From contig CAZUBK010000004.1 in NCBI GenBank assembly GCA_964618725.1, forward strand, positions 79,485 through 143,484: a DNA stretch of 64,000 nt. The letters are read 5' to 3'. A model generated the notes under the pieces. That model was not told where the DNA came from. It ran no database searches and saw nothing but the letters and a program-made list of their open reading frames with translations. Positions 30,701 to 62,796 of this stretch are shown piece after piece (within the stretch, counting starts at the first letter, position 1; each line of letters starts with the position of its first letter). Position numbers and translations under genes: made by a program. Origin of the DNA: an uncultured Pseudomonadales bacterium. GTDB lineage: Bacteria; Patescibacteriota; Microgenomatia; UBA1400; Chazhemtobacteraceae.

Positions 30701-32086
30701 TCTGTTGATACTTACGGCAAAGCCCTTGCCATCTTCAACCACGATGAGACCGAGGACTTGCTAACAGCCTCTGCCTCCAGTGTCACCAAGTTTGCTGTCA
30801 GTAGTACCGGTGCCCTGTACGTTGGTGACAACACCACCCTTGGTACCTCTACTGCCCTTTGTTGGGAATCGGTGACGCGTAATGGTGCCACCGTCTACCA
30901 GGTAGGTGACTGTACCGGTACCCCCGGAGACTATGCCGAAATGTATCCGGTGGAGAATGATATCACTTATGGAGACGTCGTGACGCTAGGAACTGAGAAT
31001 GTCGTCCAAACAGACGGACAGATTGTGAAGAGATTAGTTAAGAGTAGTCGAGAGTATGACAGCAGTGTCGTCGGTATTGTCAGCAACAACTACCACGACT
31101 TTACCTTAGCAGGGAGCGCCTCTCTTAACTCCTCCGACAACCCCATGCCAGTCGCTCTCAGTGGACGTGTTCCCGTTAAAGTCTCCACCTCCTCGGCTGA
31201 AATCCAAGCCGGTGATTTTTTGACTACTTCTACCGAGGCAGGTAAGGCGATGAAGGCAACAGTCAGTGGTTATGTCATTGGTAAGGCCCTGGAAGACTGG
31301 AGTCCTGGCCAAACCACGGTGATGGTATTTGTCAACAACACCTATTACTCAGGGATTGCTCTCAATGAGCAAGGACAAACAGGAGTAACTGCCAATTCAG
31401 ATACAGAAGGTACTATACCTTCCGATGAGCAAGTCCTTGCTAAAGATCTTCAAGACAATCAGTATGCTTCACAGTCCGCTGCACTCAAACAAGAGATTGA
31501 CACCTTAAGTTCCAAGGTAACTGAGTTGACCACAAACCTCGACTCCCTCACCTCTCTTGTCCTCAGTGCCTCCGACTCCGCACTCGTAAATCCTGAATCA
31601 TATATCTTAAATCTCAACGATGAAACTGCCACAGTTTCGTCGTTGATGGTCACAGACAAACTTCTCACTCAGGATCTTGGCATCACCGGCTCCCTCACCA
31701 GTGGCCTTCTCACAATCAACGGTCTCAACGGCGACATCCATACCCTCGCCGGCCCCTTACGTCTTCAATCCTCTCCCCTTGCTTCTTTAACAGAAGGTAT
31801 TGAAATCCTAAATGGCTACCTTACCATCGATACTAAAGGTAACCTAAACATCAACCAAGGACATATTAAAGGCAATGATACCTTCCGTGGCTCCATTACC
31901 CTACCCACAGGTAAAATCAAAGTCACTGTTCCTCAAGAGTGGGAGACCGTACCTACCTCCATTACCTTGACCCCAAGTTATCTCACCGTCACCGCCATAA
32001 CTAATATCACCACTGACGGCTTCACTATCGAAGTCCTGACCCCCTCTCTTAAAACAGAGAAGATATACTGGACCGCCATTTGGTAG
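24704..32086 (+). CDS. giant 2460-aa protein: N-terminal excisionase-type HTH, one TM helix, then a repetitive beta-helix surface domain
   Basis: N-terminus LTLTQAAQILDVNMATVRRWTNNGKLPSFRTPGGHRRL. TM helix FLTLALILATLLVSF. PbH1-like repeats NNIITGNTTAGIS...ISGNEF. Three ~113-aa tandem repeats and a ~340-bp internal duplication. C-terminal coiled-coil. Confidence 0.8.
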   Translation: MSAQKHTQTSENQTLTLTQAAQILDVNMATVRRWTNNGKLPSFRTPGGHRRLHQADVEKIALQKQRRQLLKQQALADAIQIQQLALPKTPLKPISSLLTEPSLKVIDSDPLNIPQAEGPRGIPLGIDNKSKSSFRSFLTLALILATLLVSFKGVKAFRDTIAYETLYNTLPFLSRFTGSPLSPLTQNKITDKLKGSVLQATDTVEELIFEVNIPTNIDNDLNVSGDLTVDGDLITNGNVAFDSISADTADFGSADITTLSIGGTTLTSTATELNYLDGLTLAAGGIAYSTSTGLQISAAGTSSQVLTSNGSGAPTWKSVSSIQSTDASTLDSLDSTAFLRSNADDTYDSGNTLTVAGALAVSGSLTSTGDVSISDTNIALNGATTTFTTTGDLTLAVGGSDILSTSRMTLGSATAGTAQLLIDGNADVIQLQIQGHSTQTASTFVIEQSDGTDVLAVGNTGVLTLTNSGTTNTTFNLSSSGDFIIQDNGTAFITFNSSGQVVGSDTLLFNLSAATHNSTTPEGIILPQATSFTSPSSGEGYIAWDSDDNKLMMYTGSAWVDVAAAGGSLWTDGGTTTYLTATTDDLAVGGTDSESNLFFDESASALSLNPYGTSAGNTGELRFEELEANGDSYTGFKSPDSLAANVVYTLPSADATTSNQVLASSAAGVLSWIDVSAGAGTLWTDGGTTTYVTSTTDDIAMGGTTAESPFWMDVSASLLNLNPYGTSTGNTGAFVSQELEANGDSYTGFKAPDSLAASVVYALPLADASSANQVLSSNASGTLAWIDVTGGAGAPWTTSTTNTYLTTTTNDVIVGASTPVSSAKLSVDGDDDQIQLVVQGNATQTVATQLFLVETSAGSDLFSVDVNGDLVLSGELDINGTGTHDIAGTLNLSGTTLTASGDLTITPVGGDVILGSSVALTASKINKVIVVDGTTYAQTCAGINAAIDALGASGGEIYLPEATYTCTETITVDYNNTTIRGAGKGSKIVASAWGSWGTPGDVITTGTTDYNSFRDFQIDGTLLTAQAYDLLDLPNGSNYIVIDGLYLKNSDRYGININPGGAFVMITNSIIEGSDSYGIVADNTSAYTNIANNIIRTNDYGIVIAGDFVDVSNNIITGNTTAGISATGWGEDATITGNTFFSNGTYGVYVSGTGFDTNNNVTISGNEFKTHTNGVYLNNTKQVAVVGNNIFQYSTQAGQYGVYITGASADPANSNLISNNVITGYTDAGDIGIYIVNSYANNNILSYNSFSTNETNITDNGVNTQISNADSGNLSIGGADSTPDTTLELFRASGSDSTFSMTDGDVAHGVTTLANTDAFFHAGPISSTVGGTRLTSLADADGQALELRAVQTAPTDTTPAIKLVGAKASGTGVVDLDAAETVFQVANNDDAAALTVLGSGSVGIGDTTPDAVFDVDSTSATAVIFGDGTSNYFTFDGSTDVGDTLFTFTGASSGITSGKILSVVADTITTGNALDFSVDGISTGNGMYLESTSTALSSGNIASYYWNPGSATTATGDILRLDVGSNGTIGNILNVMNGGSSVFSVSQSQITSALPHQFTAAGDVSIAYDLQFTNQTASYIKSYAPLYIEAGETFENNDLTLRTYGTGDVILDFTTSTGTGKLQIAAPDPSIVFDTETATDTDFWMGVVEDAGADDDDTFQIGDGTTPGTNPWLVLDTSGNVGIGPDTTPDYKFEINVAASSDSTFALVDGDVAHGVTTLVNTDAFFHAGPISSTVGGTRLTSLADADGQAFEISAVQTAPTDTTPAIKLVGAKASGTGVVDLDAAETVFQVANNNDTAGITMLGDSSVGIGTVTPSSFANKLAVIYSVSGITGGTSGTFQNTFTPTANTAGSPIALKAATTVSGGSTNYSSANTAIRAQASNVNNTGSLTTTYGVYSQHGALSGGTTGSSAASYGVYSDTAWSSSATLASAYNYAAVISANSGTFTNTYGFYAGDLTSGTQSNTPFSFYASDTGTFNYFGGRTGIGDTSPLGMLEVSSASVDTYGKALAIFNHDETEDLLTASASSVTKFAVSSTGALYVGDNTTLGTSTALCWESVTRNGATVYQVGDCTGTPGDYAEMYPVENDITYGDVVTLGTENVVQTDGQIVKRLVKSSREYDSSVVGIVSNNYHDFTLAGSASLNSSDNPMPVALSGRVPVKVSTSSAEIQAGDFLTTSTEAGKAMKATVSGYVIGKALEDWSPGQTTVMVFVNNTYYSGIALNEQGQTGVTANSDTEGTIPSDEQVLAKDLQDNQYASQSAALKQEIDTLSSKVTELTTNLDSLTSLVLSASDSALVNPESYILNLNDETATVSSLMVTDKLLTQDLGITGSLTSGLLTINGLNGDIHTLAGPLRLQSSPLASLTEGIEILNGYLTIDTKGNLNINQGHIKGNDTFRGSITLPTGKIKVTVPQEWETVPTSITLTPSYLTVTAITNITTDGFTIEVLTPSLKTEKIYWTAIW

Positions 32087-32514: not shown

Positions 32515-35500
32515 ATGTCTAAAATCTTAAATCATAAATCTTATCTCATAAATCGTAGATCTCGGTTGCTGTTAAAACTTGGTCTTCTCTTTCTCTCTAT
32601 TACCCTCCCCATCGCCCTCCTCATCGCCCAAAACCCCAAAACCGTGGGAGCCGCCTGGTGGAACGGTGACTGGAAATACAGAAAAGTCATCCCCATCAGC
32701 TCTCATACCGCTGCCGAAACCAACGTCTACATCGCCATTACGGCTTATGACGCCTCCGACACAACCCGCTACCAGACCGACTGCGGCGACGTTCGCTTTA
32801 CCAAATACAGTGGCGAACTTTTGCCCTACACCGTCACTAGCTGCGGCGCTTCTACCACCTTTAACGTCCTCTTTGACACCTTCCCCGCTGGCGCCCAGGA
32901 TATCTATCTCTATTACGGCAACGGCAACGCCGCCAACGGTTTTCAAACCACCGCCTTTTCTACCCAAGCATCCGCCTATGTCATCGGCACTACCGGTTCT
33001 GAAGCCACCACCCCCGGTCCCGTTGCCTACTGGAAATTTGACGAAGGCCAGGGGCAGATCATAAATGATCAAACCACCCATAATAATGACGGTACCCTGG
33101 GCGCCGATTCTTCTTCCGCCTCCGACGACCCCACCTGGGTAGAAGCAGGCCGCTGTGTGAGCGGCAAGTGTTTGAGTTTTGACGGCAGCAATGACTTCGT
33201 AAATTATACTGGCTTGCCAACCCTTTTTTCCGATTGGGGAAGCACGTCGTTCTCCATGAGCACATGGTTTAAGACGATTGATAACGCCACTGATCGAGGT
33301 GTCTTTGGTTCATACGCTGCTAATGACATTGTTCAAATGAGAATAAATCCAAACTCAGATAATAAATTATCAGTCTACATGAGAGGATCCGCTAGTTGTG
33401 GTTGGGTCTCAAGTAATTCTGCAGTAGCAAATAACCAGTGGTACTACGCTACGATGGTGTACGATAGAACAAACTTGTATCTTTATGTTAATGGTCAGCT
33501 GCAAAATTCAACTGCATGCAACATAACGAGCGTTAATTTAAGTACATTTAGTGTGGGAAAGGTCACAGGAGCAGCTTCGTCGTTTACAGGCTTCATCGAC
33601 GAACCCAAAATTTATCCCTACGCCCGCACGGCAGCGCAGGTAAAACTGGATTACGATCAGGGCGCCCAGGCGGTGCTGGGCAGCACCAACACCGTCGGCG
33701 GCTCACCGGGATTTTTAAGCAATGGCTTGGTGGGGTACTGGAAACTCGACGAATCTTCCAGTACCGCCGCGGATTCTTCAGGCAATAGCAACAGTGGCAC
33801 TTGGAACGGCACTGCCGCTGCAGCTGCAGGTAAATTTGGTAATGGCATCTCCCTAGACGGAGACAGTGACTACGTCAGCATCGGAGACACAGAATTAATC
33901 AGCACAGCCTTCACCACCTCCGTCTGGTTCAAACCTGACAACGTCACCCAAACCGGCCCTATTATCAGCAAATACACTACTACAGGTGACAATAGGTCGT
34001 ACATCATCAGACTCGACTCTAATGATTATTATTTTGCCCTTTCCAGTGACGGCACCAGTGCTAGCGGCAAATTTGACCAGCTCACCGTCAGCAACGTAGT
34101 TAGCGCCAACGTCTGGCAGTTGGCTACCGTCACCTACGACGGCACCACCGTCAAAATGTTCCTCAATGGCAGTGAGGTTGGATCTTTTGCTCATACTGGC
34201 GGAGTTTATGCCAGCGGAACTGCTTCACTATTATTCGGTAACCAATCTACTAACTATTTTGACGGCACGCTCGACGAAACCCGCATCTACAATCGCGCCC
34301 TGTCCGCCGCCGAAGTCCGCCAGCTCTACTCCTGGGCGCCCGGGCCAATTGGCCGTTGGAACCTTGATGAGGGGACAGGCACCTCTGCTGCAGATGATAG
34401 TGGAAATAGCAATACTGGGACGATTACCGATCCAACCTGGATAAATGGAAAATTTGGCAAAGCCCTTTCTTTCAATGGAACAAGTGCAGAGGTAAACATC
34501 GGAGATACAGATAACACCTCTGGTATGCTGACCATTTCTGCATGGATCAAACCAAACACCGTCAGCGGTGGGTATGATGCCATCTATGGAGAAAGCGGCT
34601 TTGGATTTTACAACTTCAATGGCGTTCTAACCTTGTGGACATCAGCGTTTACTGGAGGCACGGGTACGCTTACTGTTAATCAATGGCAACACGTAGCCGC
34701 AACATTTGACTCCAGCACCGATTCCATTTATTTCTACATTAATGGGACTCGCGTGTACAGTAAAACAAACTGGACAGGCACGGTGCCCAACGATGCAAAC
34801 ACAGAATTTATTGGTTCCTATAACGGTAGTCAGGAATGGTTTTCAGGTTTAATCGACGACATGCGCATCTACAACTACGCCCGCACGGCCGGGCAAATAA
34901 TGGAAGACATGAATGCCGGGCATCCAGTGGGCGGCTCGCCAGAAGGCTCCCAGGTTATCTACTACAAATTTGATGAACAACAAGGCAGTACCGCCAATGA
35001 CACCGTTGGCAACCAAAACGGCACCGTTACCAGTGCCAGTTGGCTGACTAAAGCAAGCTGCAAAATTAACGGCTGTTTAAGCTTTGACGCCGCCGGCGAA
35101 GTCGTAACTATCGCCACCGCCAACGACAGTGTGGTTGATTTTAACAGTAGCGAAACCTTCTCCGGCTCCGCCTGGGTCTATGTCACTACTATGCCCGGCT
35201 CTGGGGAACAAGATGCCATCATTGCCAAATGGGACGATACCGGAAATCTTGCCGATTACAAACTCTACGTCGAAAACGACGACGCCGATACCACCGGCAA
35301 CTTTGAGGTCCAGATCTATGATGAATCCGCCAGCCAAGCCATCACCGCCAGCCAGGCCATTGACCAGGTAGCCGTCAACACCTGGTATCACGTTTCTTTC
35401 ACCTTTAACGGCGGCACAGCTGGCGCCGCCGGCGACCTCAAACTCTACGTTGGTGGCAAATATACCGCTCAAAACGCGGCCAATACTTCCTTCTTGGGGT

Positions 35501-37071
35501 TAGAGGACAAGGCCAGCGACTTTACTATTGGTGAATATGATACCGGTGATGTAGTTTCCACCAATACCGCCTTCACTGGCTATATCGACGACGTCAAAAT
35601 GTATAGCTCCGCCCTCACCGCTGACCAAATCGCCGTCGACATGAATGCCAATGCGGCGCTCAATTTTGGCACCACCGCCAACGCCGAAGCCGCGGATTTA
35701 AGTGACGGCGCCGGCAACGCACCAGTGGCCTACTGGAATATGGACGAAAAAACGGGCCAATCTACTAACGACACTTCTGGCAACAGCAATACCGGCACTT
35801 TAGGCGCTACCTCCTCCTCCGCCTCCGACGACCCCACCTGGGCTACTGGTAAATACGGAGCGGGGTTAAGTTTTGATGGGAGTAATGATTATGTGAATAT
35901 TACAACGCCTTCCATATACAATCAAACTCAATATACTATTTCAGCTTGGATAAAATTGACCAACACCACTGGTAGTCAAACGATTTATTCAGAAGGTCGT
36001 AATGCTAGTTTAGGTTTTCTCTGGTTTTATATAAATGCCGGAAAAATAGAACTTCGTGATAATGATGGGACTAATTATAACCAGTACGATGGTAGCACTA
36101 CTCTCTCCACAGGTGTCTGGCACCATGTTTTGGTAACTAGAAATGGCAATACCGCAGCAAATATTTATCTGAACGGTAAACTTGAAACGTTAAGCGTAAA
36201 TTCAACTTTGGGTAGCGGAACTCTGCCCACGTTAACACTGGCTTCTGTTGGTAGCTTGTTACGTAGTACTAATGCCTCATTTTTTAACGGTTCTATAGAC
36301 GACGTCCGCATCTACAACTACGCCCGCACGGCGGCGCAGGTGGCCTACGATTACAATCGCGGCGCGCCGGTGGGCTGGTGGAAGCTGGACGAGTGCCAGG
36401 GGACGGTGGCTAATGACGCGAGTGGGAATGGCAACCACGGCACCATCACCATCGGCGCTTCGGGTGAAGACACTGTCGGCACCTGCCAAACCTCCTCCAC
36501 TGCCTGGGGCAGCGGGGCAACAGGAAAATATGGGGCGAGTTTGAGCTTTGACGGAACGGATGATTATGTGGATATCTCAACAACGGGGACCAACTATGCA
36601 CCCACGGACAAACCATTTTCTGTCTCTTCGTGGTTTAAGTCAGCTGCTTCTCCTACAGTATATGGCAGAATAGTAAACTTAAAATCCAATTCTTCTCCGT
36701 TTCATCTTATATATTCAACAGACACTAGTTATAATCTTGGATTTGGGGGTGATACCTGGGGAAAGACATGGAAAGTTCCTCTTCCCTCTTCCAACACATG
36801 GCACCATGTTGCAATAGCATATAATGGCAACGGGGTAACAACCGCCAGCAACTTCTTGGTCACAGTCGATGGATCAAGTCAAACTCTAACTAATGCTGGT
36901 AGTATTGGAAACGTATCAAACACTTCATTTATAGGAAAATATTCCGGCGCTGCGGCCAATGAGCATTTTGCTGGCCAGATCGACGACGTGCGCATCTACA
37001 ACTACGCCCTCTCTGCCGCCCAGGTGCGCAAACTCTTCAACGAAGGCGCCAGCGTGCGGTATGGCAATTAA
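32515..37071 (+). CDS. DUF2341 domain plus multiple LamG-like (concanavalin A-like lectin) repeat protein, 1518 aa
   Basis: N-terminal TM helix, WWNGDWKYRKVIPIS (DUF2341), then about 8 LamG_3-like units with the recurring ...WKLDE...G.....G...FDG..DYV...DE.RIYN.ALSAAEV pattern. Confidence 0.8.
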   Translation: MSKILNHKSYLINRRSRLLLKLGLLFLSITLPIALLIAQNPKTVGAAWWNGDWKYRKVIPISSHTAAETNVYIAITAYDASDTTRYQTDCGDVRFTKYSGELLPYTVTSCGASTTFNVLFDTFPAGAQDIYLYYGNGNAANGFQTTAFSTQASAYVIGTTGSEATTPGPVAYWKFDEGQGQIINDQTTHNNDGTLGADSSSASDDPTWVEAGRCVSGKCLSFDGSNDFVNYTGLPTLFSDWGSTSFSMSTWFKTIDNATDRGVFGSYAANDIVQMRINPNSDNKLSVYMRGSASCGWVSSNSAVANNQWYYATMVYDRTNLYLYVNGQLQNSTACNITSVNLSTFSVGKVTGAASSFTGFIDEPKIYPYARTAAQVKLDYDQGAQAVLGSTNTVGGSPGFLSNGLVGYWKLDESSSTAADSSGNSNSGTWNGTAAAAAGKFGNGISLDGDSDYVSIGDTELISTAFTTSVWFKPDNVTQTGPIISKYTTTGDNRSYIIRLDSNDYYFALSSDGTSASGKFDQLTVSNVVSANVWQLATVTYDGTTVKMFLNGSEVGSFAHTGGVYASGTASLLFGNQSTNYFDGTLDETRIYNRALSAAEVRQLYSWAPGPIGRWNLDEGTGTSAADDSGNSNTGTITDPTWINGKFGKALSFNGTSAEVNIGDTDNTSGMLTISAWIKPNTVSGGYDAIYGESGFGFYNFNGVLTLWTSAFTGGTGTLTVNQWQHVAATFDSSTDSIYFYINGTRVYSKTNWTGTVPNDANTEFIGSYNGSQEWFSGLIDDMRIYNYARTAGQIMEDMNAGHPVGGSPEGSQVIYYKFDEQQGSTANDTVGNQNGTVTSASWLTKASCKINGCLSFDAAGEVVTIATANDSVVDFNSSETFSGSAWVYVTTMPGSGEQDAIIAKWDDTGNLADYKLYVENDDADTTGNFEVQIYDESASQAITASQAIDQVAVNTWYHVSFTFNGGTAGAAGDLKLYVGGKYTAQNAANTSFLGLEDKASDFTIGEYDTGDVVSTNTAFTGYIDDVKMYSSALTADQIAVDMNANAALNFGTTANAEAADLSDGAGNAPVAYWNMDEKTGQSTNDTSGNSNTGTLGATSSSASDDPTWATGKYGAGLSFDGSNDYVNITTPSIYNQTQYTISAWIKLTNTTGSQTIYSEGRNASLGFLWFYINAGKIELRDNDGTNYNQYDGSTTLSTGVWHHVLVTRNGNTAANIYLNGKLETLSVNSTLGSGTLPTLTLASVGSLLRSTNASFFNGSIDDVRIYNYARTAAQVAYDYNRGAPVGWWKLDECQGTVANDASGNGNHGTITIGASGEDTVGTCQTSSTAWGSGATGKYGASLSFDGTDDYVDISTTGTNYAPTDKPFSVSSWFKSAASPTVYGRIVNLKSNSSPFHLIYSTDTSYNLGFGGDTWGKTWKVPLPSSNTWHHVAIAYNGNGVTTASNFLVTVDGSSQTLTNAGSIGNVSNTSFIGKYSGAAANEHFAGQIDDVRIYNYALSAAQVRKLFNEGASVRYGN

Positions 37072-37712: not shown

Positions 37713-38012
37713 CTAGATTACAGCAAAGTTTCCTCCAACCCCAATCTGAGTAGAAGTAATAATGTCTCTTTCGGGTCTATCGATAGGCACAGGTCGACGA
37801 TCTTCAATCAAACTATCAACATACGTTTTTATCGCTTGCGTCACATTTTCTACTGCTTCTTCCACAGTATCTCCATCATCAGCAACTCCCAAAGTTGGAG
37901 AATAGGCATAAAAACCAGGTTTGCCAGTTCCTGTTTCTTCATCCGGTTCAACAATGATTCTGTAGTTCAAAAATGTTTTCTGCATATCCCTCATTATATA
38001 CCCTCTTGCCAA
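37713..38012 (-). CDS. hicB: HicB-family antitoxin (UPF0150)
   Basis: ...YRIIVEPDEETGTGKPGFYAYSPTLGVADDGDTVEEAVENVTQAIKTYV... It lies immediately upstream of hicA. Confidence 0.7.
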   Translation of the reverse strand: MARGYIMRDMQKTFLNYRIIVEPDEETGTGKPGFYAYSPTLGVADDGDTVEEAVENVTQAIKTYVDSLIEDRRPVPIDRPERDIITSTQIGVGGNFAVI

Positions 38013-39739: not shown

Positions 39740-40548
39740 TTAAGTCACGTAAAACTTTCCGTCTCTTTCTGTCACTTCCCCTCTTAGTTGCAACATCGAC
39801 AACTCCACGCTTACCTCTCCGACTGATTTCTTCAATTTCATCGCCATCTCATCCATAGTTAGTGCCTCAATAGACAGTAGCTTGTAGAGCGTAGAGCGTG
39901 ATCCACCGTTTTTTCTACCCTCTACCTTCAACCTTCTAAGTTCTAGTGCTTCTAAAATGTCATTCGCGCTTGTCAGCATCTGCGCCTGCCCTTCTTTGAT
40001 TAAATTGTTTGTCCCAACACAAACCTTGGAGGTAATTGGTCCCGGCACCGCAAACAACTTCTTGCCAAATTTGAGTGCCAAATCCGCCGTAATCAAACTT
40101 CCGGATTTCTCCGCCGCCTCAATCACAATTGTTACCTTGCTCATCCTCGCTACAATCCTATTTCGCTGCGGAAACATCCATACTTGGCAGCCCCTTCATA
40201 CTCACTTATAATCAAGCCCTTTTTCTGTATTTCTGAATACAATTTTTGATCTTCAAAAGGGACCTTCCAATCAATCCCCCAGCCCAAAACAGCCACCGTC
40301 TTCCCACCACAGGAAAGCGCTATCTTATGCGCCTCTTGATCCACCCCATACATAAACCCCGAAACAATCGTTATTCCGACGTCACAAAGAGACGGAATAA
40401 TTTTTTCCAAAACCGTCTTTCCATAACTAGTCATCTTTCTACTCCCCACTACTGCCACACAATTTTCTAAATCCGCTTCCTCCAAAACCCCCTTGCGGTA
40501 AAGCTTCTTGACCTCAGGCTTAATATCCTCGAATAACCCTCCATTCAT
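39740..40548 (-). pseudogene. dprA: DprA/Smf DNA-processing protein split into two ORFs by a frameshift near 40150-40180
   Basis: The upstream ORF 40150..40548 carries the DprA Rossmann N-part. The downstream ORF 39740..40177 begins MFPQRNRIVARMSKV, the conserved DprA FPxRNRIIAGLS motif. The two frames overlap by 28 nt. Confidence 0.6.
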
Positions 40549-47999: not shown

Positions 48000-49152
48000 T
48001 CAGCAATATTCGTCTGTATCTGACAATTCGAAGATTATATAAAACAATAAGCAGTCGATACTCAGTCATGACAACTTACGAACAAAATATATCAGTCAAT
48101 TGACGTATCGGATTACACCTCCCAAGACAGCCCTCTTTCTCTAAGTTACCTTCCCTTACTTCTCCTCCTTCCTATACTCAAATTACTTGGGTATATCTCC
48201 TCGCTCTGACTCCTCGACATTGTAGTCCCTTTCTACACCCCTCTATCCTGACACGCAGCAACTTAAGGGTATATCCTAGATCCCAAATATCTATCGAAAA
48301 CAACTTAACAACAAACCATATCAGGCAACCTTGAAGACAGGCCCACATCCCTGAACCCTCTCTAATATCCCCTTCATCATCCAAACTTGATAGTCATTAC
48401 CCTCGCTCTACGTATTTAGCGCTCTCATCGATTATTTTGCCCAGCTCTTTTTCCTATCAAAACAATCACCCGAGTGCTAAATGGTCCATTACAGTCAAAA
48501 ATTGTCTAGATTTCCGAGTAAAGAAAAAACCAGACTCCTTACGCGCAAACCTTATCCCGCTCATCTGCTGCTAAATCCAATAACCGACCCACATCAACAC
48601 TATGACGTCCACACTTCACCGTCCTAGGCACAGATATATCACTTCCCGGGTTCAGCAAATCAATCTAGATCAGAATATCTCAAAATTCTTTTCACTCCAG
48701 ACAGGTCTACAGTACAACACCTTCGGAAATAATCAACAAATATATAACAAACACCTCCTCCGTAGGCTCGGTCCATCACAAATTAGTTTTCCGCATAGAT
48801 TCCCACAAAGCTAGATCTCCACAAAGTCTATCCTAACCGTTTTCATCCTCCTGATGTATCTTCTTTTTCATAAATGGCCCTTTTTTGACATGCAACTCAT
48901 CTCAAACCCGTAGTGAGCCAAGTAATGACCCTAGACTGTTCACGTCCTTTTGTTCCACACAAATCAAGGGCCTCACCACTCCCCTTTCATTTGTCGTCTT
49001 CATTTAGACTATTTCGCAAAAAAATTAGTAATGTCCTATCAACTTTCTCTTCCAGACCAATCAGTACAAACCACCTGAAGATAGATTTTCTATCGAAAAA
49101 TTATTAACGGTTAGCGTTTTAGCAACACGATCTTCAGTCTGGAATAGCAAAA

Positions 49153-49176
49153 TGGGGGCATTGCTGCCCCCATTAT
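49153..49176 (-). terminator. intrinsic terminator for the 49176..50084 gene (TGGGGGCA-TTGC-TGCCCCCA)
   Basis: 8-bp GC hairpin followed on the minus strand by TTTTGCTATT. Confidence 0.65.
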
Positions 49177-50084
49177 TAGTTCCCTTCTTCTAACCATTTG
49201 TTGTACTGAACAAACGCTTCCGCCTCAGTCCAGCCAAAGGCTTTTTCAAAGGCCACCGGTGATGCCTCCCCTGCACAGAGACTTCGCCAATAGAGATGGA
49301 AAACTTCCAGACTACTAGCCTCTACACTCGGCGCTTCAAGTAGCAAAAAGACTGCAAAAGCCTCCGCTGTAGGGACTCCGTCACCAGACACTCTACCTGT
49401 AGACATTTCCTCAATTAACGGCTTTTCCCAAGTCTTTAGATTGAGAATCCAATCCTGATACTGAGAGGTCTCTAACAATTCCCTCCAGGTCGTCTGTTTT
49501 TTGGGGAAAGACCCCTCCAACTGACTATTCACCAAATCCTGAAGTAGATATGCTTCGCCTTCAATCATGTAGCCAGGCGCCGCCATATTGCCGCAACTTA
49601 GATGTCGTTGTGACGCATGAATCAGTTCATGGGTGAGTATTTTTGTCCGCCAAGCAGCATCCAGTTGATACCAACCTTCTGTCCCGTCAATAATAATCAC
49701 TACCTGACCGGGCTCCTGTCCTGAAAGAGTTAGACCGCGAATCTCCTCATTACTCCAAGCGTTTTCAGAACGTCCTGAAGTTGACAATCTCTCTGTCGCC
49801 CGCATGATTAGTTCACGATCAAACCCAACCACAATCCGCGTTCCCTCAGGTAAAACGTAACCCTCTAAGGAAAGATAATCAACCACCGACAGCAACTGCG
49901 CTGCAGCGTTTACTTCAATAGCAGGGTCAACCGGTTCCAGATATTCTAACTCCGGCAACCCAACCAGCGTCGCTGTTTGGTACTTCTCGATTTTGTTTGT
50001 CTCCTGAATTAACCAGAACAACTCAACTGCCACAATCGTCCAGACAAAAATAGCTACGAAAGTCCAGGATCGCCTTTTCATCAA
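49176..50084 (-). CDS. putative HExxH zinc metallopeptidase, membrane-anchored
   Basis: N-terminal TM helix, and THELIHASQRH followed by ...MIEGEAY, possibly a gluzincin third ligand. Confidence 0.5.
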   Translation of the reverse strand: MMKRRSWTFVAIFVWTIVAVELFWLIQETNKIEKYQTATLVGLPELEYLEPVDPAIEVNAAAQLLSVVDYLSLEGYVLPEGTRIVVGFDRELIMRATERLSTSGRSENAWSNEEIRGLTLSGQEPGQVVIIIDGTEGWYQLDAAWRTKILTHELIHASQRHLSCGNMAAPGYMIEGEAYLLQDLVNSQLEGSFPKKQTTWRELLETSQYQDWILNLKTWEKPLIEEMSTGRVSGDGVPTAEAFAVFLLLEAPSVEASSLEVFHLYWRSLCAGEASPVAFEKAFGWTEAEAFVQYNKWLEEGN

Positions 50085-50167
50085 TACCTCCGCAAAAAGT
50101 GAATGTACTACCCCATACTATATCATATAGATACAAATTGGGGTGGCTTAAGCCACCCCAATAGAAA

Positions 50168-50557
50168 CTACTTTTCCAAAATCCGAGCCATCAGCAAAGT
50201 GTAAAACAAAGATGCCAAGGCCATCAAGATCATCACCAGCGGGAGCACTGCTCCCCCAATTCCCAATATCTGCATATCTGGTAGCCAGGAAGCACCCAAC
50301 ACTGCCCACAGCTCAACAACATACAATCCTATTTCCGCCGGGTGACTATTCTGCTCACTAAAGTAAAGACCCACCTTGACCGGCGTGGCCAAAAACAGCT
50401 GGACCAAGACCAGCAGAAGGTAGTTCTCGAAACGAAGTTCCGGTAACCACAAAAAGATCGCGGCAATAGTCAGCACTACACCACTGACCACCGCCTGAAT
50501 TAAGTCCTGGAGCTCATACGGCTCCTTTAACGCCTGTTGTAAATTAACCCTTCCCAT
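50168..50557 (-). CDS. hypothetical small polytopic membrane protein
   Basis: Three hydrophobic helices. Confidence 0.5.
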   Translation of the reverse strand: MGRVNLQQALKEPYELQDLIQAVVSGVVLTIAAIFLWLPELRFENYLLLVLVQLFLATPVKVGLYFSEQNSHPAEIGLYVVELWAVLGASWLPDMQILGIGGAVLPLVMILMALASLFYTLLMARILEK

Positions 50558-50695
50558 TTCTCTATCCTTTCAAAGAACCAAGTTGCCGATAGTATATCAA
50601 GACTGTGATGTGTAAGCAATTACAGATCTTGACAAGCCCCCCTTCTTATGGTACTATAGGACCCATCGTTTCCACATTATAATATTGGAGGAAAC

Positions 50696-51238
50696 ATGGA
50701 TCTCTTTAACAGCGCTAAAGCCAAGGTTGTTCTGGTCAAGAATCATACTCTCACCCAGACCGTCCTCGACGTTCTGGAAGGCGTGATTCTGATTTTGACA
50801 GCCATCCAGGCTGCCAAGGTCACCCTGCTGTTCGCTCTCCATCTGTTTGGGGCGCAAATCCCCAGCTGGGGCGCACAGCTCGCCGGAACTTCCTACCTGC
50901 TGGTTTTGGGGGATTTCGCCCTTCGGGGCGCCGTCCTCTACGGCCTGGTCCGGCTCGAATCTGACCCGAATCAGCGGCGTGAGCTTCACGCCACGGCCAC
51001 GCCCATCATGGCGCTGGCCAGCCTGGGCCTGATTGTCAACCTGCTCCCCTTTGAATGGCGGAGTCTGGGAACAATCGTTCTGATCGGCGCCTTCGGCGGC
51101 ATCACCCATGTGAGCCTCCACGGCACGCTCATGAATTGGAAGCAGACGATTAGTGCCGTCGAGGCACTGTTCAACAAGGCGAACGACAAGCTCGCCAAGA
51201 CTGCTCCGGCTCCGGCCAAGAAACAGACCACCAGCTAG
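50696..51238 (+). CDS. hypothetical polytopic membrane protein in a GC-rich islet
   Basis: Four TM helices. Local GC is about 60% versus about 45% for the window. A strong terminator follows. Confidence 0.55.
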   Translation: MDLFNSAKAKVVLVKNHTLTQTVLDVLEGVILILTAIQAAKVTLLFALHLFGAQIPSWGAQLAGTSYLLVLGDFALRGAVLYGLVRLESDPNQRRELHATATPIMALASLGLIVNLLPFEWRSLGTIVLIGAFGGITHVSLHGTLMNWKQTISAVEALFNKANDKLAKTAPAPAKKQTTS

Positions 51239-51253
51239 CGCAACAAAAGATCA

Positions 51254-51278
51254 CCGCCCCTCATCGAGGGGCGGTTTT
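51254..51278 (+). terminator. intrinsic terminator (CCGCCCCTC-ATC-GAGGGGCGG plus TTTT)
   Basis: Perfect 9-bp hairpin followed by a T-run. Confidence 0.75.
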
Positions 51279-51290
51279 CGTATACAAAAT

Positions 51291-51318
51291 GCCCTCTTTG
51301 TCTAAAAACAAAGAGGGC
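51291..51318 (-). terminator. hairpin terminator for the convergent minus-strand gene (GCCCTCTTTGT-loop-ACAAAGAGGGC)
   Basis: 11-bp perfect stem. The minus-strand downstream sequence is ATTTTGTATA. Confidence 0.5.
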
Positions 51319-51343
51319 TGAAAGTCCCGTTAGAGACGAAAAG

Positions 51344-51943
51344 CTATTCCTGCCGCGTCTGTGACCGCTCCCGGGGTGCCTCGGTTGGGATCCGTGGCGT
51401 CGCCGCCCTGGCCACCGGTATAGTCGCCGACGCATCGGGTTCTTCATTCATCCGCGCCTCAAGACTAGCCGCCGCGTCACCGGCAATCTGACCGATCTTG
51501 GCGCCAACTGGCTTAAGAGCCGACATGAGCATGGAAAGACCAGTGACCAAACCAATCCGAACTCCCCTAAAGACACCCAATTGGTGGTTCTCAACCATCC
51601 AAAGGAGGCCGAAACCAACGAGCAGGACCAGAAGTACGGGTACCGCCGATAACGACGGTAGTAAAATTACCCCAACTGCCGCAATCAACGTCAAACCAAT
51701 CACCAGCAACTCAAAGGCTGCATCTTCAGCCGTATCGAAAAACCAGGTCATCACTTGGAAGACAGCAATCAACGCGATCGATCCACCAGCCAAGTACAAT
51801 GCTTCCATCGGACTCTCGCCCAAAAGTAGGTTCAACAGCAAGTCAACACAGATGATCGTCAGAAAGATAGATTGAATCACATCCCAAACCATCGCCATCT
51901 TCGGCTTGGCTCGCTTATTCTTCCACGCATTCCACAAACCCAT
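51344..51943 (-). CDS. hypothetical polytopic membrane protein in a GC-rich islet
   Basis: Four TM helices and a GC-rich C-terminal tail that is Pro/Arg-rich. Confidence 0.55.
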   Translation of the reverse strand: MGLWNAWKNKRAKPKMAMVWDVIQSIFLTIICVDLLLNLLLGESPMEALYLAGGSIALIAVFQVMTWFFDTAEDAAFELLVIGLTLIAAVGVILLPSLSAVPVLLVLLVGFGLLWMVENHQLGVFRGVRIGLVTGLSMLMSALKPVGAKIGQIAGDAAASLEARMNEEPDASATIPVARAATPRIPTEAPRERSQTRQE

Positions 51944-52042
51944 TTAAGTTTCTCCTTTTTAAGATATAAATGTTCGAATACGCAAATTATACTTCATAGT
52001 AGTGATAAGTCAATCTCATAACCAGACGATAGTAAGATTATT

Positions 52043-52142
52043 ATCGGCGCAGTTATAAGAGGAAGCGCAGGACATCATTTCGATAATACATATTATCGAA
52101 GGTAAGGATGAGCAAGTCGTAAATCCTTTAGGGCTCTTATAA
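52043..52142 (+). repeat. copy C of the ~90-nt structured repeat family (closing stem TTATAAGAG/CTCTTATAA)
   Basis: Shares TTATCGGCGCAG...TTATAAGAGGAAGCGCAG...GAGCAAG with copy A. It has an internal hairpin CGATAAT-ACAT-ATTATCG. Confidence 0.5.
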
Positions 52143-52147
52143 GGTAG

Positions 52148-53053
52148 TTACTTTTCAAACCATCGATTGAATATCACGCTTGTTTCATGAAATTTCGCCC
52201 GAAATGCCGGATAAACAAAATAGGCCGCCATTGCTTCCGCAAATTTTTCTCCGTTTTTTAACACTACATCCAAGGTCTCCAACTCTCCCGTTGCATAATC
52301 ACGAGTCACATCAATTCTCGTATCACTTTCATCTTTCTCAAGAGCCGAAATAACATCGCCTTGTTCTTCTGGTGACAACTGAGCCCAAATAAGATGAGCC
52401 ATTTCGTGCCGAAATGTTCTTTCATACGCTGCCAATAATATATCAGTCTTGTCTCCAGATACCTCCCTCATTCGACTCACAGTAGGTAAATACAGAAGGA
52501 CTCTTTTCTGTTTAATTTCTGAATGGCCCCCATATACACTTTTGCGAGACTGGCTGTACCAGCGAGTCGGTATAACCACTATCTCTGAAACTACATCTTC
52601 CTTCTCTATATCACTCGGCACCATCTCCTCTACCATCACCATCATCTTTTTTCGAAACTCCTCCATCTCCATAGCAGTCATATCAAATCCCTCTGGTCCC
52701 AGTATCCTAACCCCATCAATTGGAGCAATCTCACTAGTCTTAGCAAGAATCTGCCACTTCCCCTCAATATCTTCCCAAGTTCTTGCCGTATGGAGAGCAC
52801 TGTCAGGAAATTCTTGTCTTCTCAACATCTTTTCAGCCATGGTCTGGACTTGCTCATCAGCTTTGTGAGATACCCCCTGCTTTGCTCTTAATGCAAAAGT
52901 TGTCCAAAGCACCTTCTCAACATTCATTTTCCTATTAGTTTGTCCTTCAAAGTCAGCCGGTCTACTAGGTTGTTTCAACAACTTATACACCCACAACCTA
53001 TCACGGTTCTCAACCTCTCGCTCTGTCGGTCTAGTCTCAATCGTCTCATCCAT
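52148..53053 (-). CDS. putative HExxH metallopeptidase-like protein (paralog 1)
   Basis: FRHEMAHLIWAQLSPEEQ lies near the C-terminus, with the same placement as in 53320..54471. Confidence 0.5.
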   Translation of the reverse strand: MDETIETRPTEREVENRDRLWVYKLLKQPSRPADFEGQTNRKMNVEKVLWTTFALRAKQGVSHKADEQVQTMAEKMLRRQEFPDSALHTARTWEDIEGKWQILAKTSEIAPIDGVRILGPEGFDMTAMEMEEFRKKMMVMVEEMVPSDIEKEDVVSEIVVIPTRWYSQSRKSVYGGHSEIKQKRVLLYLPTVSRMREVSGDKTDILLAAYERTFRHEMAHLIWAQLSPEEQGDVISALEKDESDTRIDVTRDYATGELETLDVVLKNGEKFAEAMAAYFVYPAFRAKFHETSVIFNRWFEK

Positions 53054-53056
53054 ACC

Positions 53057-53320
53057 TTAGGCTTCAATTCTATAACCGTTCTCAAATAACACAGCCCTCA
53101 ATCCTACAAAATACTCTAGATCATTTACATCCGTTACTAGTTTAACTCCATGCCCTATGACCCCATCTCCAGCTACAACTGTTCTCACTTCCACACCTTC
53201 TTTTACCGTCTCTAACACTCGTTTCAACTCTAGACCATTCTCTCCAACAACAACCCAATTTCCATTCTGGTATTGGATCCTCCATTCTCTGTTATCTTTT
53301 TTTACTCTATATTCTTCCAT
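53057..53320 (-). CDS. small hypothetical protein (87 aa) between the two HExxH paralogs
   Basis: Tightly packed, with a 4-nt gap and a shared boundary, suggesting one operon. Confidence 0.45.
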   Translation of the reverse strand: MEEYRVKKDNREWRIQYQNGNWVVVGENGLELKRVLETVKEGVEVRTVVAGDGVIGHGVKLVTDVNDLEYFVGLRAVLFENGYRIEA

Positions 53321-54471
53321 TATTTGATTTTTGGATTATGTATTTCGTCTAACACTCGCATTGTATTCCTAAAGAATTTCTTATACTGTCCCAGCTTCCC
53401 ATAGCTCTTGTATATTTCCATAGACATCGTGTATATCTCCTGCTGCTGTTGTTCTTCAAGGAGTTTTAGTAAATATCTCTCGGGATAAGCAAAGGATGGT
53501 AAATACCCATCATTCGTTTGTTCGTCAAGTACGGCCGCTTGTAGTATTTGATCTTTTTGTTCATCAGTCAAGACATAATTCCAGTCTAAATGTCCAATTT
53601 CATGTATGAAATAATCTCTATAAAGATATTTAAATGTCTCAACGGCATCCTGACTCAAACCAGCCAAGAAGACTTTAGCCATAGGGGATATTTGTATATA
53701 TCTTCTATCGGAGTCAGCACGACCCACAACAACCATTCCGCCTACCAACAGTACATTTTCAGGAACAAAATCTATATGATCAACTAAATCAACTACTTCT
53801 CCCCCTGGTAACATCACTGTATCACTAACATCTTTATTTACACAGCTTTCATTCATTATCATCTCATACGTACTATAAAGTCTCCTTATCTCATCCTCGG
53901 TTAATCCCCAAAGTTCCAACCCCCTTATTTTCCCTCCCCCAGGCACCTCTCCCTTTCTGTCTGATACTTCTTTCCTCAATACAATCAAACGTTTGACCAG
54001 TGAATTGTAAATTTTCTGATCAAAGCTATCTTCATCCCAAAGAGTGTTTGAGATTTGATCTGCCTCTTCTCGCAATACCACCATTTGATCTCTCAAGTCA
54101 CCCAATTCCTCATCCTCTAAAACAGCATCTGCTGCTGCCACTATGTAGCTTGCTACTAATATCTGACCACCGAATTTCACCTTCCTTTTACCAACCCTAC
54201 CCTCCTTACTCTCCTGTATCATCCATTTTGCTATCTCACCAATATCCTCCTTCATTCTTTTGACCGGTAGTCCTGGGATTAGTACTTTGTCATACAAAAA
54301 CTCATACAACTTTCGACTCAGTTCACAACTTCTTTCTTCCTCCTGACTTTCTGGGTCCTTCATCCTCAGGGGAAATAACTCGCCAAACCTATCAAACACC
54401 CATTTGCTTTCGACTTGCCGTACTCCATCAATTTTCACCCCTTCCGAAATCTCATCCGCCATATTCAACAT
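53320..54471 (-). CDS. putative HExxH metallopeptidase-like protein (paralog 2)
   Basis: FIHEIGHLDWNYVLTDEQ has the same motif placement as 52148..53053. Confidence 0.5.
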   Translation of the reverse strand: MLNMADEISEGVKIDGVRQVESKWVFDRFGELFPLRMKDPESQEEERSCELSRKLYEFLYDKVLIPGLPVKRMKEDIGEIAKWMIQESKEGRVGKRKVKFGGQILVASYIVAAADAVLEDEELGDLRDQMVVLREEADQISNTLWDEDSFDQKIYNSLVKRLIVLRKEVSDRKGEVPGGGKIRGLELWGLTEDEIRRLYSTYEMIMNESCVNKDVSDTVMLPGGEVVDLVDHIDFVPENVLLVGGMVVVGRADSDRRYIQISPMAKVFLAGLSQDAVETFKYLYRDYFIHEIGHLDWNYVLTDEQKDQILQAAVLDEQTNDGYLPSFAYPERYLLKLLEEQQQQEIYTMSMEIYKSYGKLGQYKKFFRNTMRVLDEIHNPKIK

Positions 54472-54508
54472 CCTACCACCAATCCCCCTCTTCTTCTATT
54501 CTTTCTTG

Positions 54509-54582
54509 TGGACCCGATCGGGATCGAACCGATTACCTCCACTATGCCATAGTGGCGCTCTAGCCAAGTGAGCTACGGGCCC
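54509..54582 (-). tRNA. tRNA-Ala (anticodon GGC)
   Basis: Minus strand GGGCCCG-TA-GCTC-ACTTGGCTA-GAGC...CCACT-ATGGCAT-AGTGG...ATCGG-TTCGATC-CCGAT-CGGGTCC-A. The G3·U70 alanine identity pair is present. Confidence 0.8.
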
Positions 54583-54699
54583 GCGTAAAACGTGGCAAGC
54601 CAAGCTACATTTTACCATGTTATTATAACCACCAATAGTGAAAATTAAGCTCTTATCCCCCTACGCACCTTTCCATTCATGTTCTTAAGGAGACCTCCC

Positions 54700-54909
54700 A
54701 TGTCCAATCTTCCTCTGTCAAGCATCAAAGTCTTCTCTGATACCACTCCTTTCAAGGTCGAAGTTCAAGCCCAAACCTGGTCAGAGCTGATGAGTCGCAC
54801 CTACAACAACTTCCAGATCACCGCCCTTACTTCTACCTATACTCCAGCCGAAGGCCGCCACAAAGCTTTTTTCATCCTGACAATCGCCTATACTTACGAT
54901 CCCTTTTAA
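54700..54909 (+). CDS. small hypothetical protein (~69 aa) between inverted tRNA-Ala genes
   Basis: AAGGAG SD at 54687-54692, 7 nt before the ATG at 54700. The ORF-track start at 54679 is less likely. Confidence 0.4.
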   Translation: MSNLPLSSIKVFSDTTPFKVEVQAQTWSELMSRTYNNFQITALTSTYTPAEGRHKAFFILTIAYTYDPF

Positions 54910-55013
54910 TCCTTTTTTTCACCACCTCCTCTTGGCTGGTTTCTGTCTGTTTCTTCCATCAGTGTGGCAAACTATCTCTGGCTTGCCGCGTTTTGGCTTG
55001 CCGCGTTTTACGC

Positions 55014-55084
55014 GGGCCCGTAGTTAAACGGTATACCATACCCTTCGCATGGGTAGATTCCGGGTTCGACTCCCGGCGGGTCCA
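55014..55084 (+). tRNA. tRNA-Ala-like (anticodon CGC), possibly degenerate
   Basis: GGGCCCG acceptor identical to the minus-strand tRNA-Ala, G3·U70, loop TTCGCAT, T-arm CCGGG-TTCGACT-CCCGG. The D-arm is atypical with one mismatch. Confidence 0.5.
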
Positions 55085-55681
55085 CATCTCAACAAAACTC
55101 TCCCGAAAGGAAACGCACCTTGATTCTCAAACACGTCTTTACTCTGGAAAGAAAGCAAGCCATCCGCGTCTTTAATTTCTCCGGCTTTCGCTTCACCTTC
55201 ATCGATGACAAATTCCCCATCACTCTAGTCAAAGCCATTCTCCATCTCACCCCTACTCAACTCAACCCCAACCTTTCTTTTCTTAACGACTTACCTATTA
55301 ACTCACCCCTCATCTTCACCTTCACCAACTGGGTTCTCCCCTTTGAGCCGTCCCCCCCGCTTAACTTTGACTTAAGTAGGCTTACCGACTCCGACCTCCT
55401 CATCCGCTCCCATCACTCCAGTTACGAAGCCATCCCCCGCTACCACTCGTATGCTCACTCCATTAGACGAATATATCGTCGTCTTACTCTAGAGAGTTCA
55501 GCCTTTAATTCTGTTGGCACCCGTCCCAAACACCAAATAATTCTCCCTCTCAGCCGCCAACACTTTCGCTTAAGCCAACATCTTCTCCCTGGGACTGTCT
55601 TTCGCTTTAATCTGCAACTCAAAGTCGATAACTAGTTTCACTCCCCCGCCAACCGGCGGGGTTCTCGTGTAAAATATCCTT

Positions 55682-62378: not shown

Positions 62379-62384
62379 CGAAAA

Positions 62385-62415
62385 CCCCTCTCAATTGAGA
62401 GGGGTTCTTTTTTTT
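62385..62415. terminator. bidirectional intrinsic terminator (CCCCTCTC-AATT-GAGAGGGG plus T9)
   Basis: Perfect hairpin between the ABC gene (+) and the 62425..62718 gene (-). Confidence 0.75.
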
Positions 62416-62424
62416 GCCCAATGG

Positions 62425-62718
62425 CTAGCGGCGGCGGCCGCCACCCCCATGGGGGGCAGCCTTCTTCTGGCGCGCCTTTTCCTCCGCCTTGACGACGGAG
62501 GGTGACTTGTAAACCGCCACCAACATCAGCGTCCGGCCAGAGCCGGGATGACGCCCGTACAGGCCGTAGCCCTGAGGCCCGTTTTGAAGGGTGGCGACCA
62601 CCGTCACGAACCGTGTCTGGAGCTTCGCTCCAGTCTCGGTTGTGACAACCTCGCGGACCTTGAAGGTCACGGTCGGCCGACGCTCGATGTCCCAGCCTGC
62701 CACTTTGAAAGTTGCCAT
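62425..62718 (-). CDS. hypothetical protein (97 aa) in a GC-rich islet
   Basis: AAGGAGG SD 5 nt before the ATG. A consensus promoter (TTGACA-17-TATATT) lies upstream on the minus strand at + coordinates 62768..62796. Confidence 0.55.
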   Translation of the reverse strand: MATFKVAGWDIERRPTVTFKVREVVTTETGAKLQTRFVTVVATLQNGPQGYGLYGRHPGSGRTLMLVAVYKSPSVVKAEEKARQKKAAPHGGGGRRR

Positions 62719-62767
62719 CGTTTCCTCCTTGAAAATGCTGTCACAGCTGAGGGAATCGATAACCCGT

Positions 62768-62796
62768 AATATACTACAAAATCACCTATTTGTCAA
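62768..62796 (-). promoter_or_regulatory. consensus sigma70 promoter for 62425..62718
   Basis: Reverse complement reads TTGACA-aataggtgattttgtag-TATATT. Confidence 0.55.

Follow-up and report, generated by a model that had tools for sequence, protein, structure and literature searches.

In Pseudomonas aeruginosa, the pilB and pilA genes are divergently transcribed. The pilin alleles of this species, together with their associated genes, lie between the conserved pilB gene and tRNA-Thr, and the accessory genes define five groups (PMC2841157). Here we describe a comparable locus in a 64,000-nucleotide stretch of DNA (the window; contig CAZUBK010000004.1, positions 79,485 to 143,484), whose host is a Microgenomates-type Patescibacterium. 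The interval in question, 50696-51943 of the window, holds two convergent open reading frames (ORFs), ORF180 and ORF199, with ORF129 divergent from ORF180 on one side and a tRNA-Ala(GGC) gene on the other. Like the pilin locus, it has a conserved gene at one end, a tRNA at the other, and a divergent allelic gene plus variable accessory genes in between. It differs in that ORF180 is polytopic, has no Pfam match and is known from three alleles. A test for pilin identity also failed, i.e., the prepilin leader (G, then F/M-T-L-x-E) was not found in the ORF180 N-terminus (MDLFNSAKAKVVLVKNH).

Recombination has been linked to higher gene GC content in bacteria via GC-biased gene conversion (gBGC) (Lassalle et al., 2015; PMC4450053). 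ORF180 resembles such cases in that it would be a recombining gene whose GC content at third codon positions (GC3) lies above that of the genome, independently of amino acids. It is unlike them in scale, the excess being +0.25 GC3 in a single 540-bp gene; the gBGC trends so far described across bacterial genomes are much smaller than this. Classical tRNA-linked islands share with the locus a nearby tRNA, deviant GC, orphan genes and differences between relatives. Unlike those islands, the locus has no integrase and no direct repeats, its dinucleotides are host-like, and the apparent replacement lies inside a conserved transcription unit; the interval thus lacks most of the features by which genomic islands are classically recognized. 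Finally, as is known for shadow ORFs in GC-rich genes, a long antisense frame in register with the GC3-rich ORF180 has been called as a gene, and in this respect there is nothing unusual here.

The ORF180 slot and its alleles

The reading that we favor, with moderate confidence, is that of a conserved expression slot in which the coding cassette has been exchanged by recombination, with GC3-richness in every allele. ORF180 and ORF199 constitute two independent, convergent, monocistronic units, each with a near-consensus sigma-70-type promoter, a strong Shine-Dalgarno sequence and its own predicted intrinsic terminator, and both lie in a variable region between the conserved ORF129 gene and tRNA-Ala(GGC). 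The slot of ORF180 is fixed: the gene diverges from ORF129, and a similar terminator and then tRNA-Ala follow it. The coding cassette would be swapped between lineages by homologous recombination, the conserved flanks probably acting as recombination arms. In that case, the GC3 excess would have arisen through repeated recombination (gBGC) or from the allele pool, and not from a one-off import of two genes.

ORF180 (50696-51238, plus strand; GC 0.59) encodes a small helical membrane protein of 180 amino acids (aa) with about four predicted transmembrane (TM) segments. Its predicted promoter, at 50629-50657 on the plus strand, reads TTGACA, 17 nt, TGgTACTAT (an extended -10), and a GGAGG Shine-Dalgarno sequence (50687-50691, plus) stands 4 nt from the ATG. 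Downstream lies its predicted terminator, hairpin 1 with its TTTT tract (51253-51279, plus), a 10-bp stem containing 8 GC (ACCGCCCCTC/GAGGGGCGGT at 51253-51275; dG -22.4 kcal/mol, z -5.2) that is followed by TTTTCG on the plus strand and that could act in both directions. ORF199 (51344-51943, minus; 199 aa) encodes about 4-5 TM segments plus a 58-residue tail. It is preceded by a candidate promoter at 51986-52013 (minus; TTGACT, 16 nt, TATAAT; 11/12 matches) and a GGAG Shine-Dalgarno sequence at ~51951-51956 (minus). Its predicted terminator, hairpin 2 (51283-51318, minus), has a 12-bp stem (GCCCTCTTTGT/ACAAAGAGGGC at 51291-51318; dG -25.5 kcal/mol, z -6.1) and then, on the minus strand, ATTTTGT. 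Both stems are perfect, and the two hairpins show the GC-rich stem-loop and T-run of intrinsic (Rho-independent) terminators. The first-pass annotation had described convergent ORFs of 180 and 199 aa meeting at back-to-back perfect hairpins, and on both points it was exact; judged by these features, the predicted terminators are ordinary intrinsic ones. On the far side of the ORF180 promoter, ORF129 (50168-50557, minus; 129 aa, GC3 0.61) encodes another small polytopic membrane protein and is followed by its own terminator hairpin at 50137-50162 (minus), an 11-bp stem (ATTGGGGTGGC/GCCACCCCAAT) and then TTGTATC (dG -21.2, z -5.4).

A close relative of this locus was found on L084, an ENA contig of 1 kb from ERZ4903072. 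ORF129 and its counterpart there (P0009) are 94% identical, with a synonymous divergence (dS) of 0.65, a nonsynonymous divergence (dN) of 0.028 and a dN/dS of 0.04. From the ORF129 terminator through the promoter, ribosome-binding site and first codons of ORF180, the window and L084 share 82-87% identity, and the ORF129 terminator hairpin, the ORF180 promoter and its GGAGG are all kept. The alignment then stops at 50711, in codon 6 of ORF180. This places a 5' homology breakpoint at 50712-50716, ~35 bp upstream of the rise in GC (50747), which we take as the putative start of the exchanged cassette. Past the breakpoint, L084 encodes a different small membrane protein of at least 143 aa, on the ORF180 strand and equally GC-rich; the slot is filled by a very different allele, seen for 143 codons before the contig ends, and is not empty. 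The DNA in this part is 33% identical when compared ungapped (mean over offsets, 26%), whereas at least 56% would be expected of unconstrained sequence given the ORF129 dS of 0.65 (proportion of synonymous differences, 0.435), i.e., divergence here exceeds the neutral level.

At the protein level, ORF180 and the L084 allele are colinear and weakly similar (local score z 5.1, or 3.2 with block shuffles). In the L084 allele only P.W, LY, E and L...G are kept, and its membership of the ORF180 family is marginal. ORF180 scored 158 against a distant allele on a second contig, L082, and 59 against the allele of its close relative L084; it is therefore nearer to the former, and in this it is incongruent with ORF129. 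The position of the breakpoint inside the coding sequence (CDS), downstream of a common promoter, points to allele replacement rather than insertion, and a history of horizontal exchange of the ORF180 CDS is supported by these comparisons. On parsimony, the window allele may have been inherited vertically and L084 may represent the replaced lineage.

L082, a Logan contig of 1.7 kb from SRR22388314, carries the homologue P0002 (ORF193) in the same arrangement, i.e., an opposite-strand gene encoding 129 aa, a divergent intergenic region, ORF193, a terminator and the 3' half of a tRNA. The 129-aa protein is an ORF129 homologue (26-29% identity; shuffle z 6.6 and 4.6), the intergenic region contains TTGACA and TATTAT promoter elements laid out as at ORF180, and the terminator sequence resembles hairpin 1 (ACCGCCC..TCATC..GGGCGGTTTTC; z 6.6). 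The tRNA half at the contig end, 225 bp past ORF193, matches the tRNA-Ala(GGC) of the window at 28/30 bases (blastn), with two T-stem differences that are compensatory and with U70 retained. ORF180 has diverged from its L082 homologue about as much as ORF129 has from its own L082 counterpart. In the window, the 3.3 kb between the ORF180 stop and tRNA-Ala hold ORF199, ORF301, ORF87 and ORF383. In relatives, where the first-pass annotation had proposed to look for the segment, two states were seen: a very different allele on L084, and on L082 a homologue without the ORF199-ORF383 block between ORF193 and the tRNA.

The compositional excess was also seen on L082. ORF193 has a GC content of 0.512 and a GC3 of 0.629, compared with a GC of 0.375-0.416 in its flanks and a GC3 of 0.385 in the 129-aa gene, an excess over its own neighbors of +0.10 to +0.14 GC and +0.24 GC3. 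The same slot with a similar GC excess in the lower-GC host of L082 suggests that the excess follows the gene family. We also examined loci anchored on leucyl-tRNA synthetase (LeuRS) in 80 genomes, the nearest being a Collierbacteria metagenome-assembled genome (MAG; 64% identity) and a Microgenomates MAG (56%); in these loci there was no synteny upstream of leuS and no ORF180-family member.

Base composition of the interval and its possible causes

By sliding-window analysis, the composition jump that had been reported at ~50700-51950 proved real, with a GC content of 0.556 for 50696-51943; the window as a whole has 0.470, and the flanking 2-kb stretches have 0.453 and 0.401. The figure of ~60% GC given with it holds for the ORF180 CDS (0.591, or 0.600 counted from 50712) but not for the whole interval, in which the terminator spacer has a GC of 0.476 and ORF199 of 0.538. 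The 500-bp and 1000-bp GC maxima of the window both fall in the interval. At 300 bp its peak (0.643 at 50801; z ~3.5) is the second highest, since 62421 reaches 0.647, and at 1250 bp it is level with 25591, inside a giant gene. The change point in GC mapped to 50747. With a GC3 of 0.746, ORF180 was the top of 56 ORFs (others: mean 0.483, sd 0.082, maximum 0.671), and its GC3 is uniformly 0.67-0.80 along the gene. In essence, the GC peak coincides with the ORF180 CDS, and the interval is not one unit. Amino-acid composition was ruled out as the cause in ORF180, for which it predicts a GC of 0.493 against the observed 0.591. In ORF199, by contrast with its membrane part (GC 0.49), the last 58 codons, an Ala/Pro/Arg/Glu-rich tail, have a GC of 0.65. 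GC3 is moderate throughout this gene (0.53-0.66), the excess in the tail comes from codon positions 1 and 2, and we largely accept amino-acid composition as its explanation.

Oligonucleotide usage, which the first-pass annotation had suggested as a check, gave a tetranucleotide distance of z 1.8 and a GC-normalised dinucleotide relative-abundance distance that was ordinary (z 0.47, rank 354/1256). No integrase or transposase gene and no Pfam, PHROG or PADLOC match was found across 49176-54471. There were likewise no repeats bracketing the interval, no second, att-like copy of the tRNA-Ala 3' end, and no similarity to viral contigs, to phage and plasmid DNA or in tblastn searches against phages. 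Rfam was without a match in 49000-53500 at E <= 1, and over the entire window it yielded just the four tRNAs.

The frequencies of the individual bases at third codon positions (A3, C3 and G3) set the alleles apart from the host. Plus-strand genes of the window have C3 0.42 and G3 0.11, and minus-strand genes G3 0.36 and C3 0.11, an extreme asymmetry between the strands. G3 in the three alleles is 0.26-0.33. The individual values are A3 0.07, C3 0.42 and G3 0.32 for ORF180, A3 0.07, C3 0.44 and G3 0.26 for the L084 allele, and A3 0.19, C3 0.35 and G3 0.28 for ORF193 on L082. All three alleles are thus GC3-rich (0.75, 0.70 and 0.63, respectively) and A3-poor and lack the host's C-over-G skew at third positions, which is retained in other membrane-protein genes of the window.

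Composition elsewhere in the window was recorded as well. GC skew is negative throughout. A second GC peak (0.647), at 62425-62718 on the minus strand, corresponds to ORF97, which encodes a basic non-membrane protein of 97 aa (GC 0.646, GC3 0.776; third positions A 0.09, C 0.38, G 0.40) and, as in ORF180, is without strand skew. ORF97 has its own TTGACA/TATATT promoter (~62760-62795) and an AAGGAGG ribosome-binding site, is convergent with an ABC-transporter terminator at 62383-62416, and gave no Pfam, viral or phage match. Within the 64 kb, composition of the ORF180 type was confined to 36271-36600, ORF180 and the ORF97 region. A broad plateau of 50-55% GC is due to two giant plus-strand proteins, one of 2460 aa (24704-32086) that combines an HTH_17/MerR domain at its N terminus with a beta-helix, and one of 1518 aa (32515-37071) with six Laminin_G_3 repeats.

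Two other explanations of the composition were weighed against exchange of a cassette in a conserved slot. The first-pass annotation had suggested horizontal acquisition, which in its classical form would mean that ORF180, ORF199 and the terminators were imported together from a GC-richer donor and are not yet ameliorated. We consider this unlikely. ORF180 and ORF199 are near-orphans and the interval contains GC and GC3 outliers, but the GC of ORF199 is due to the amino acids of its tail. ORF180 lacks the third-position strand skew of the host, and there is a tRNA gene 2.6 kb away; against this stand an ordinary dinucleotide signature and the lack of an integrase, of repeats and of an att-like tRNA duplicate. 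L084 does differ in sequence at the same place, although the 5' breakpoint falls within the ORF180 CDS, past the common promoter. The ORF180 family also occupies this slot on L082, where its GC excess is in proportion to the lower GC of that host, a further point against a single import. What remains of horizontal acquisition is exchange of the ORF180 CDS, as suggested by the L084 breakpoint, and not a foreign block of two genes that bears the GC of its donor. We assign a similarly low probability to the explanation that ORF180 and ORF97 are strongly expressed small genes in which G/C-ending codons would reflect translational or mRNA-level selection. Such selection would fit the near-consensus promoters, GGAGG-type sites and strong terminators of both genes, their shared composition (A3-poor, with G3 and C3 both high) and the presence of the same trait in three ORF180 alleles. 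The one ribosomal-protein gene of the window, that of L1 (2-544), nevertheless has a GC3 of 0.50 and a G3 of 0.11 and favors CTC, AAA and GAA, whereas ORF180 prefers CTG, AAG and CAG. Since the codon choice of L1 differs, the use of ribosomal-protein-like optimal codons by ORF180 is unsupported.

As to what produced the GC excess, recombination-linked bias and a GC-richer donor pool are tentative explanations to which we give the same weight, while selection on codons or mRNA and some other cause each appear less probable again. Exchange at a conserved slot has several points against it. ORF180 is no more than marginally homologous to the L084 allele (block-shuffle p ~0.015; hhalign not significant), which makes non-homologous displacement possible, and when conservation of the promoter sequence between the window and L082 was considered, the similarity was not significant. 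Three family members are available, two of them on contigs of 1-1.7 kb, and these cover the 5' breakpoint alone. Either L084 or the window lineage may have been the recipient of the replacement, and a GC-richer donor pool or codon selection would yield the same picture as the putative gBGC. A simple alternative account would be old polymorphism instead of cassette replacement.

Coding strand and protein family of ORF180

The exact ORF180 sequence is absent from a collection of 15 billion proteins, which holds in its place an antisense ORF of 151 aa (50654-51109), contributed by NCBI and Logan. The antisense frame spans 50654-51121 on the minus strand (155 aa; the called version, P0007, starts at 51109 and has 151 aa), and its product would be Q/N/D/E/G-rich with no TM segments. 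It seems very improbable to us that this ORF is the real gene and ORF180 its shadow, or that both strands are coding. Although the antisense ORF is called by NCBI and Logan alike, has GGAGG 5 nt before its ATG and lies on a purine-rich coding strand like that of host genes, similarity between ORF180 and L082 by tblastx was confined to the sense frame. The antisense ORF of L082 is in another register and unrelated to that of the window, and L084 lacks any long internal antisense ORF, its gene call being on the ORF180 strand. No promoter was found upstream of the antisense ORF, and two terminators lie just upstream on the same strand. TTA, CTA and TCA codons are absent from ORF180, which is why the antisense frame is open; an open in-register frame is to be expected without them. 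A dual-coding antisense pair failed as a candidate on the same observations, i.e., the different register and lack of similarity on L082 and the lack of a long antisense ORF on L084. Because cross-genome similarity is found in the ORF180 frame only, ORF180 is the real gene and the public antisense call is most likely on the wrong strand; the antisense ORF would be an ordinary shadow ORF. The near-invisibility of the ORF180 family in protein databases follows from the calling of this antisense frame as a gene.

An exhaustive HMMER search identified one real relative of ORF180, P0002 (193 aa; E 2.3e-8 database-wide). In pairwise comparison the two are 30% identical (E 1e-16; shuffle z 24 and 13), with similarity that is full-length and with the motifs IPSWG, YGL.(K/R)LE.D and G..MN.KQ in common. 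The homology search proposed for both proteins therefore yielded a relative for ORF180, whereas ORF199 retrieved itself only. Further searches added nothing to this. A word-indexed search with ORF180 found nothing (that with ORF199 found ORF199 itself), a profile of ORF180 and P0002 retrieved P0002 alone, scans of JGI metagenomes with degenerate peptide patterns gave zero matches, and looking up exact proteins in search of strain variants was mostly without result. With the motif DNA pattern IPSWG-22-YGL-2-LE, the JGI metagenomes yielded a single match, in a 794-aa TARA protein (L083), which was judged to be chance. ORF180, ORF199 and ORF129 had zero matches in Pfam, NCBIfam, PHROGs, PADLOC and PDB sequences, and ORF180 shows no link to either ORF199 or ORF129 that would make it their paralogue. 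On sequence grounds, ORF180 and P0002 thus appear to form a new, very rare and unnamed membrane-protein family.

The hydropathy profile of ORF180 shows two strong and two weaker segments, and that of ORF199 shows four to five. Single-sequence AlphaFold models of the two proteins were all-helical and of low confidence (predicted local distance difference test scores, 57 and 64), and with these low-confidence models Foldseek found nothing in PDB below E = 1. The description of both as 4-TM proteins is compatible with the profiles and models, but given the weak segments and the low model confidence the count is plausible but soft.

The variable stretch, the wider window and implications

ORF199 and three AT-richer genes separate ORF180 from the tRNA, which places ORF199 in the variable stretch and outside the conserved slot and pair. 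A distant relationship of ORF199 to the ORF129 family is a tentative possibility, suggested by an hhalign E of 0.001 (probability 21%) and, solely with the 129-aa protein of L082, by shuffle z scores of 4.3 and 2.6. The place taken by ORF199 in the window, between the back-to-back terminators and tRNA-Ala, is occupied on L082 by a mini-ORF of 16 codons (MDKFGFLNDLIRNVEDE; 1575-1625, minus) that has a strong AAGGAG site and may be either a remnant or an ORF that arose by chance. The AT-richer block (52148-54471, minus; GC 0.41) comprises ORF301, ORF87 and ORF383, for which there was no family match. HExxH motifs occur in three lineage-specific, minus-strand proteins of 302, 301 and 383 aa (HELIH at 49176-50084, HEMAH at 52148-53053 and HEIGH at 53320-54471). 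None had a Pfam, NCBIfam, PHROG or PADLOC match, the 301-aa and 383-aa proteins are alike in the motif region (E 7e-4), and all three may be unclassified metallopeptidases. On its far side, the variable region ends at the conserved tRNA-Ala(GGC) gene (54508-54582, minus). This gene belongs to a divergent arrangement at 54508-55085 with tRNA-Ala(CGC) on the plus strand, around a 69-aa ORF (54700-54909, plus) that carries a ribosome-binding site and matched no family.

On the other side, ~1.15 kb between leuS and ORF302 (48000-49175) contains no ORF of at least 100 aa, is G-poor with a GC of 0.41, and gave nothing in Rfam. Positions 1-330 of L082, its left flank, look similar to this stretch in composition but do not align with it. 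The window also encodes ComEA/ComEC, dprA and giant surface proteins. The dprA gene (DNA_processg_A) is split into two overlapping ORFs on the minus strand (39740-40177 and 40150-40548) that carry the N- and C-terminal domain parts; either the gene is frameshifted or a pseudogene, or the assembly is in error. A 99-aa ORF at 37713-38012 (minus), with an unusually low GC3 of 0.29, gave a sub-threshold match to a HicB-like antitoxin (23.2 bits; cut-off 27).

With regard to function, conservation of ORF129 (dN/dS 0.04) next to a hypervariable ORF180 suggests exposure of the latter to diversifying or balancing selection. ORF180 could, with low confidence, be a membrane component under such selection (e.g., in phage, host-cell or competitor contact) that works beside ORF129. 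More speculatively, and doubtfully at present, ORF129 and ORF180 would form a patescibacterial membrane module of two components that has not been seen before, in which a conserved partner is combined with anciently diverged, recombination-shuffled alleles held in a fixed slot beside tRNA-Ala; these would act as a determinant of strain specificity or of an arms race (recognition of phage, host cell or competitor) and bear the scar of GC-biased conversion. If this is true, wrong-strand gene calls would keep the ORF180 family largely hidden from protein databases. Unless such a hidden polymorphic specificity module holds, the general interest of the locus is modest.

Taken together, the data separate a compositional anomaly from the inference of foreign DNA, since the GC excess is tied to a gene family and a slot across hosts of different GC content. 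They also flag a probable wrong-strand annotation in public records and indicate that small GC3-rich genes in the AT-leaning genomes of the candidate phyla radiation can vanish from protein databases. The ORF129/ORF180/tRNA-Ala locus would be a place to measure allele exchange, and possibly GC-biased conversion, in metagenomic populations of uncultivated Patescibacteria.

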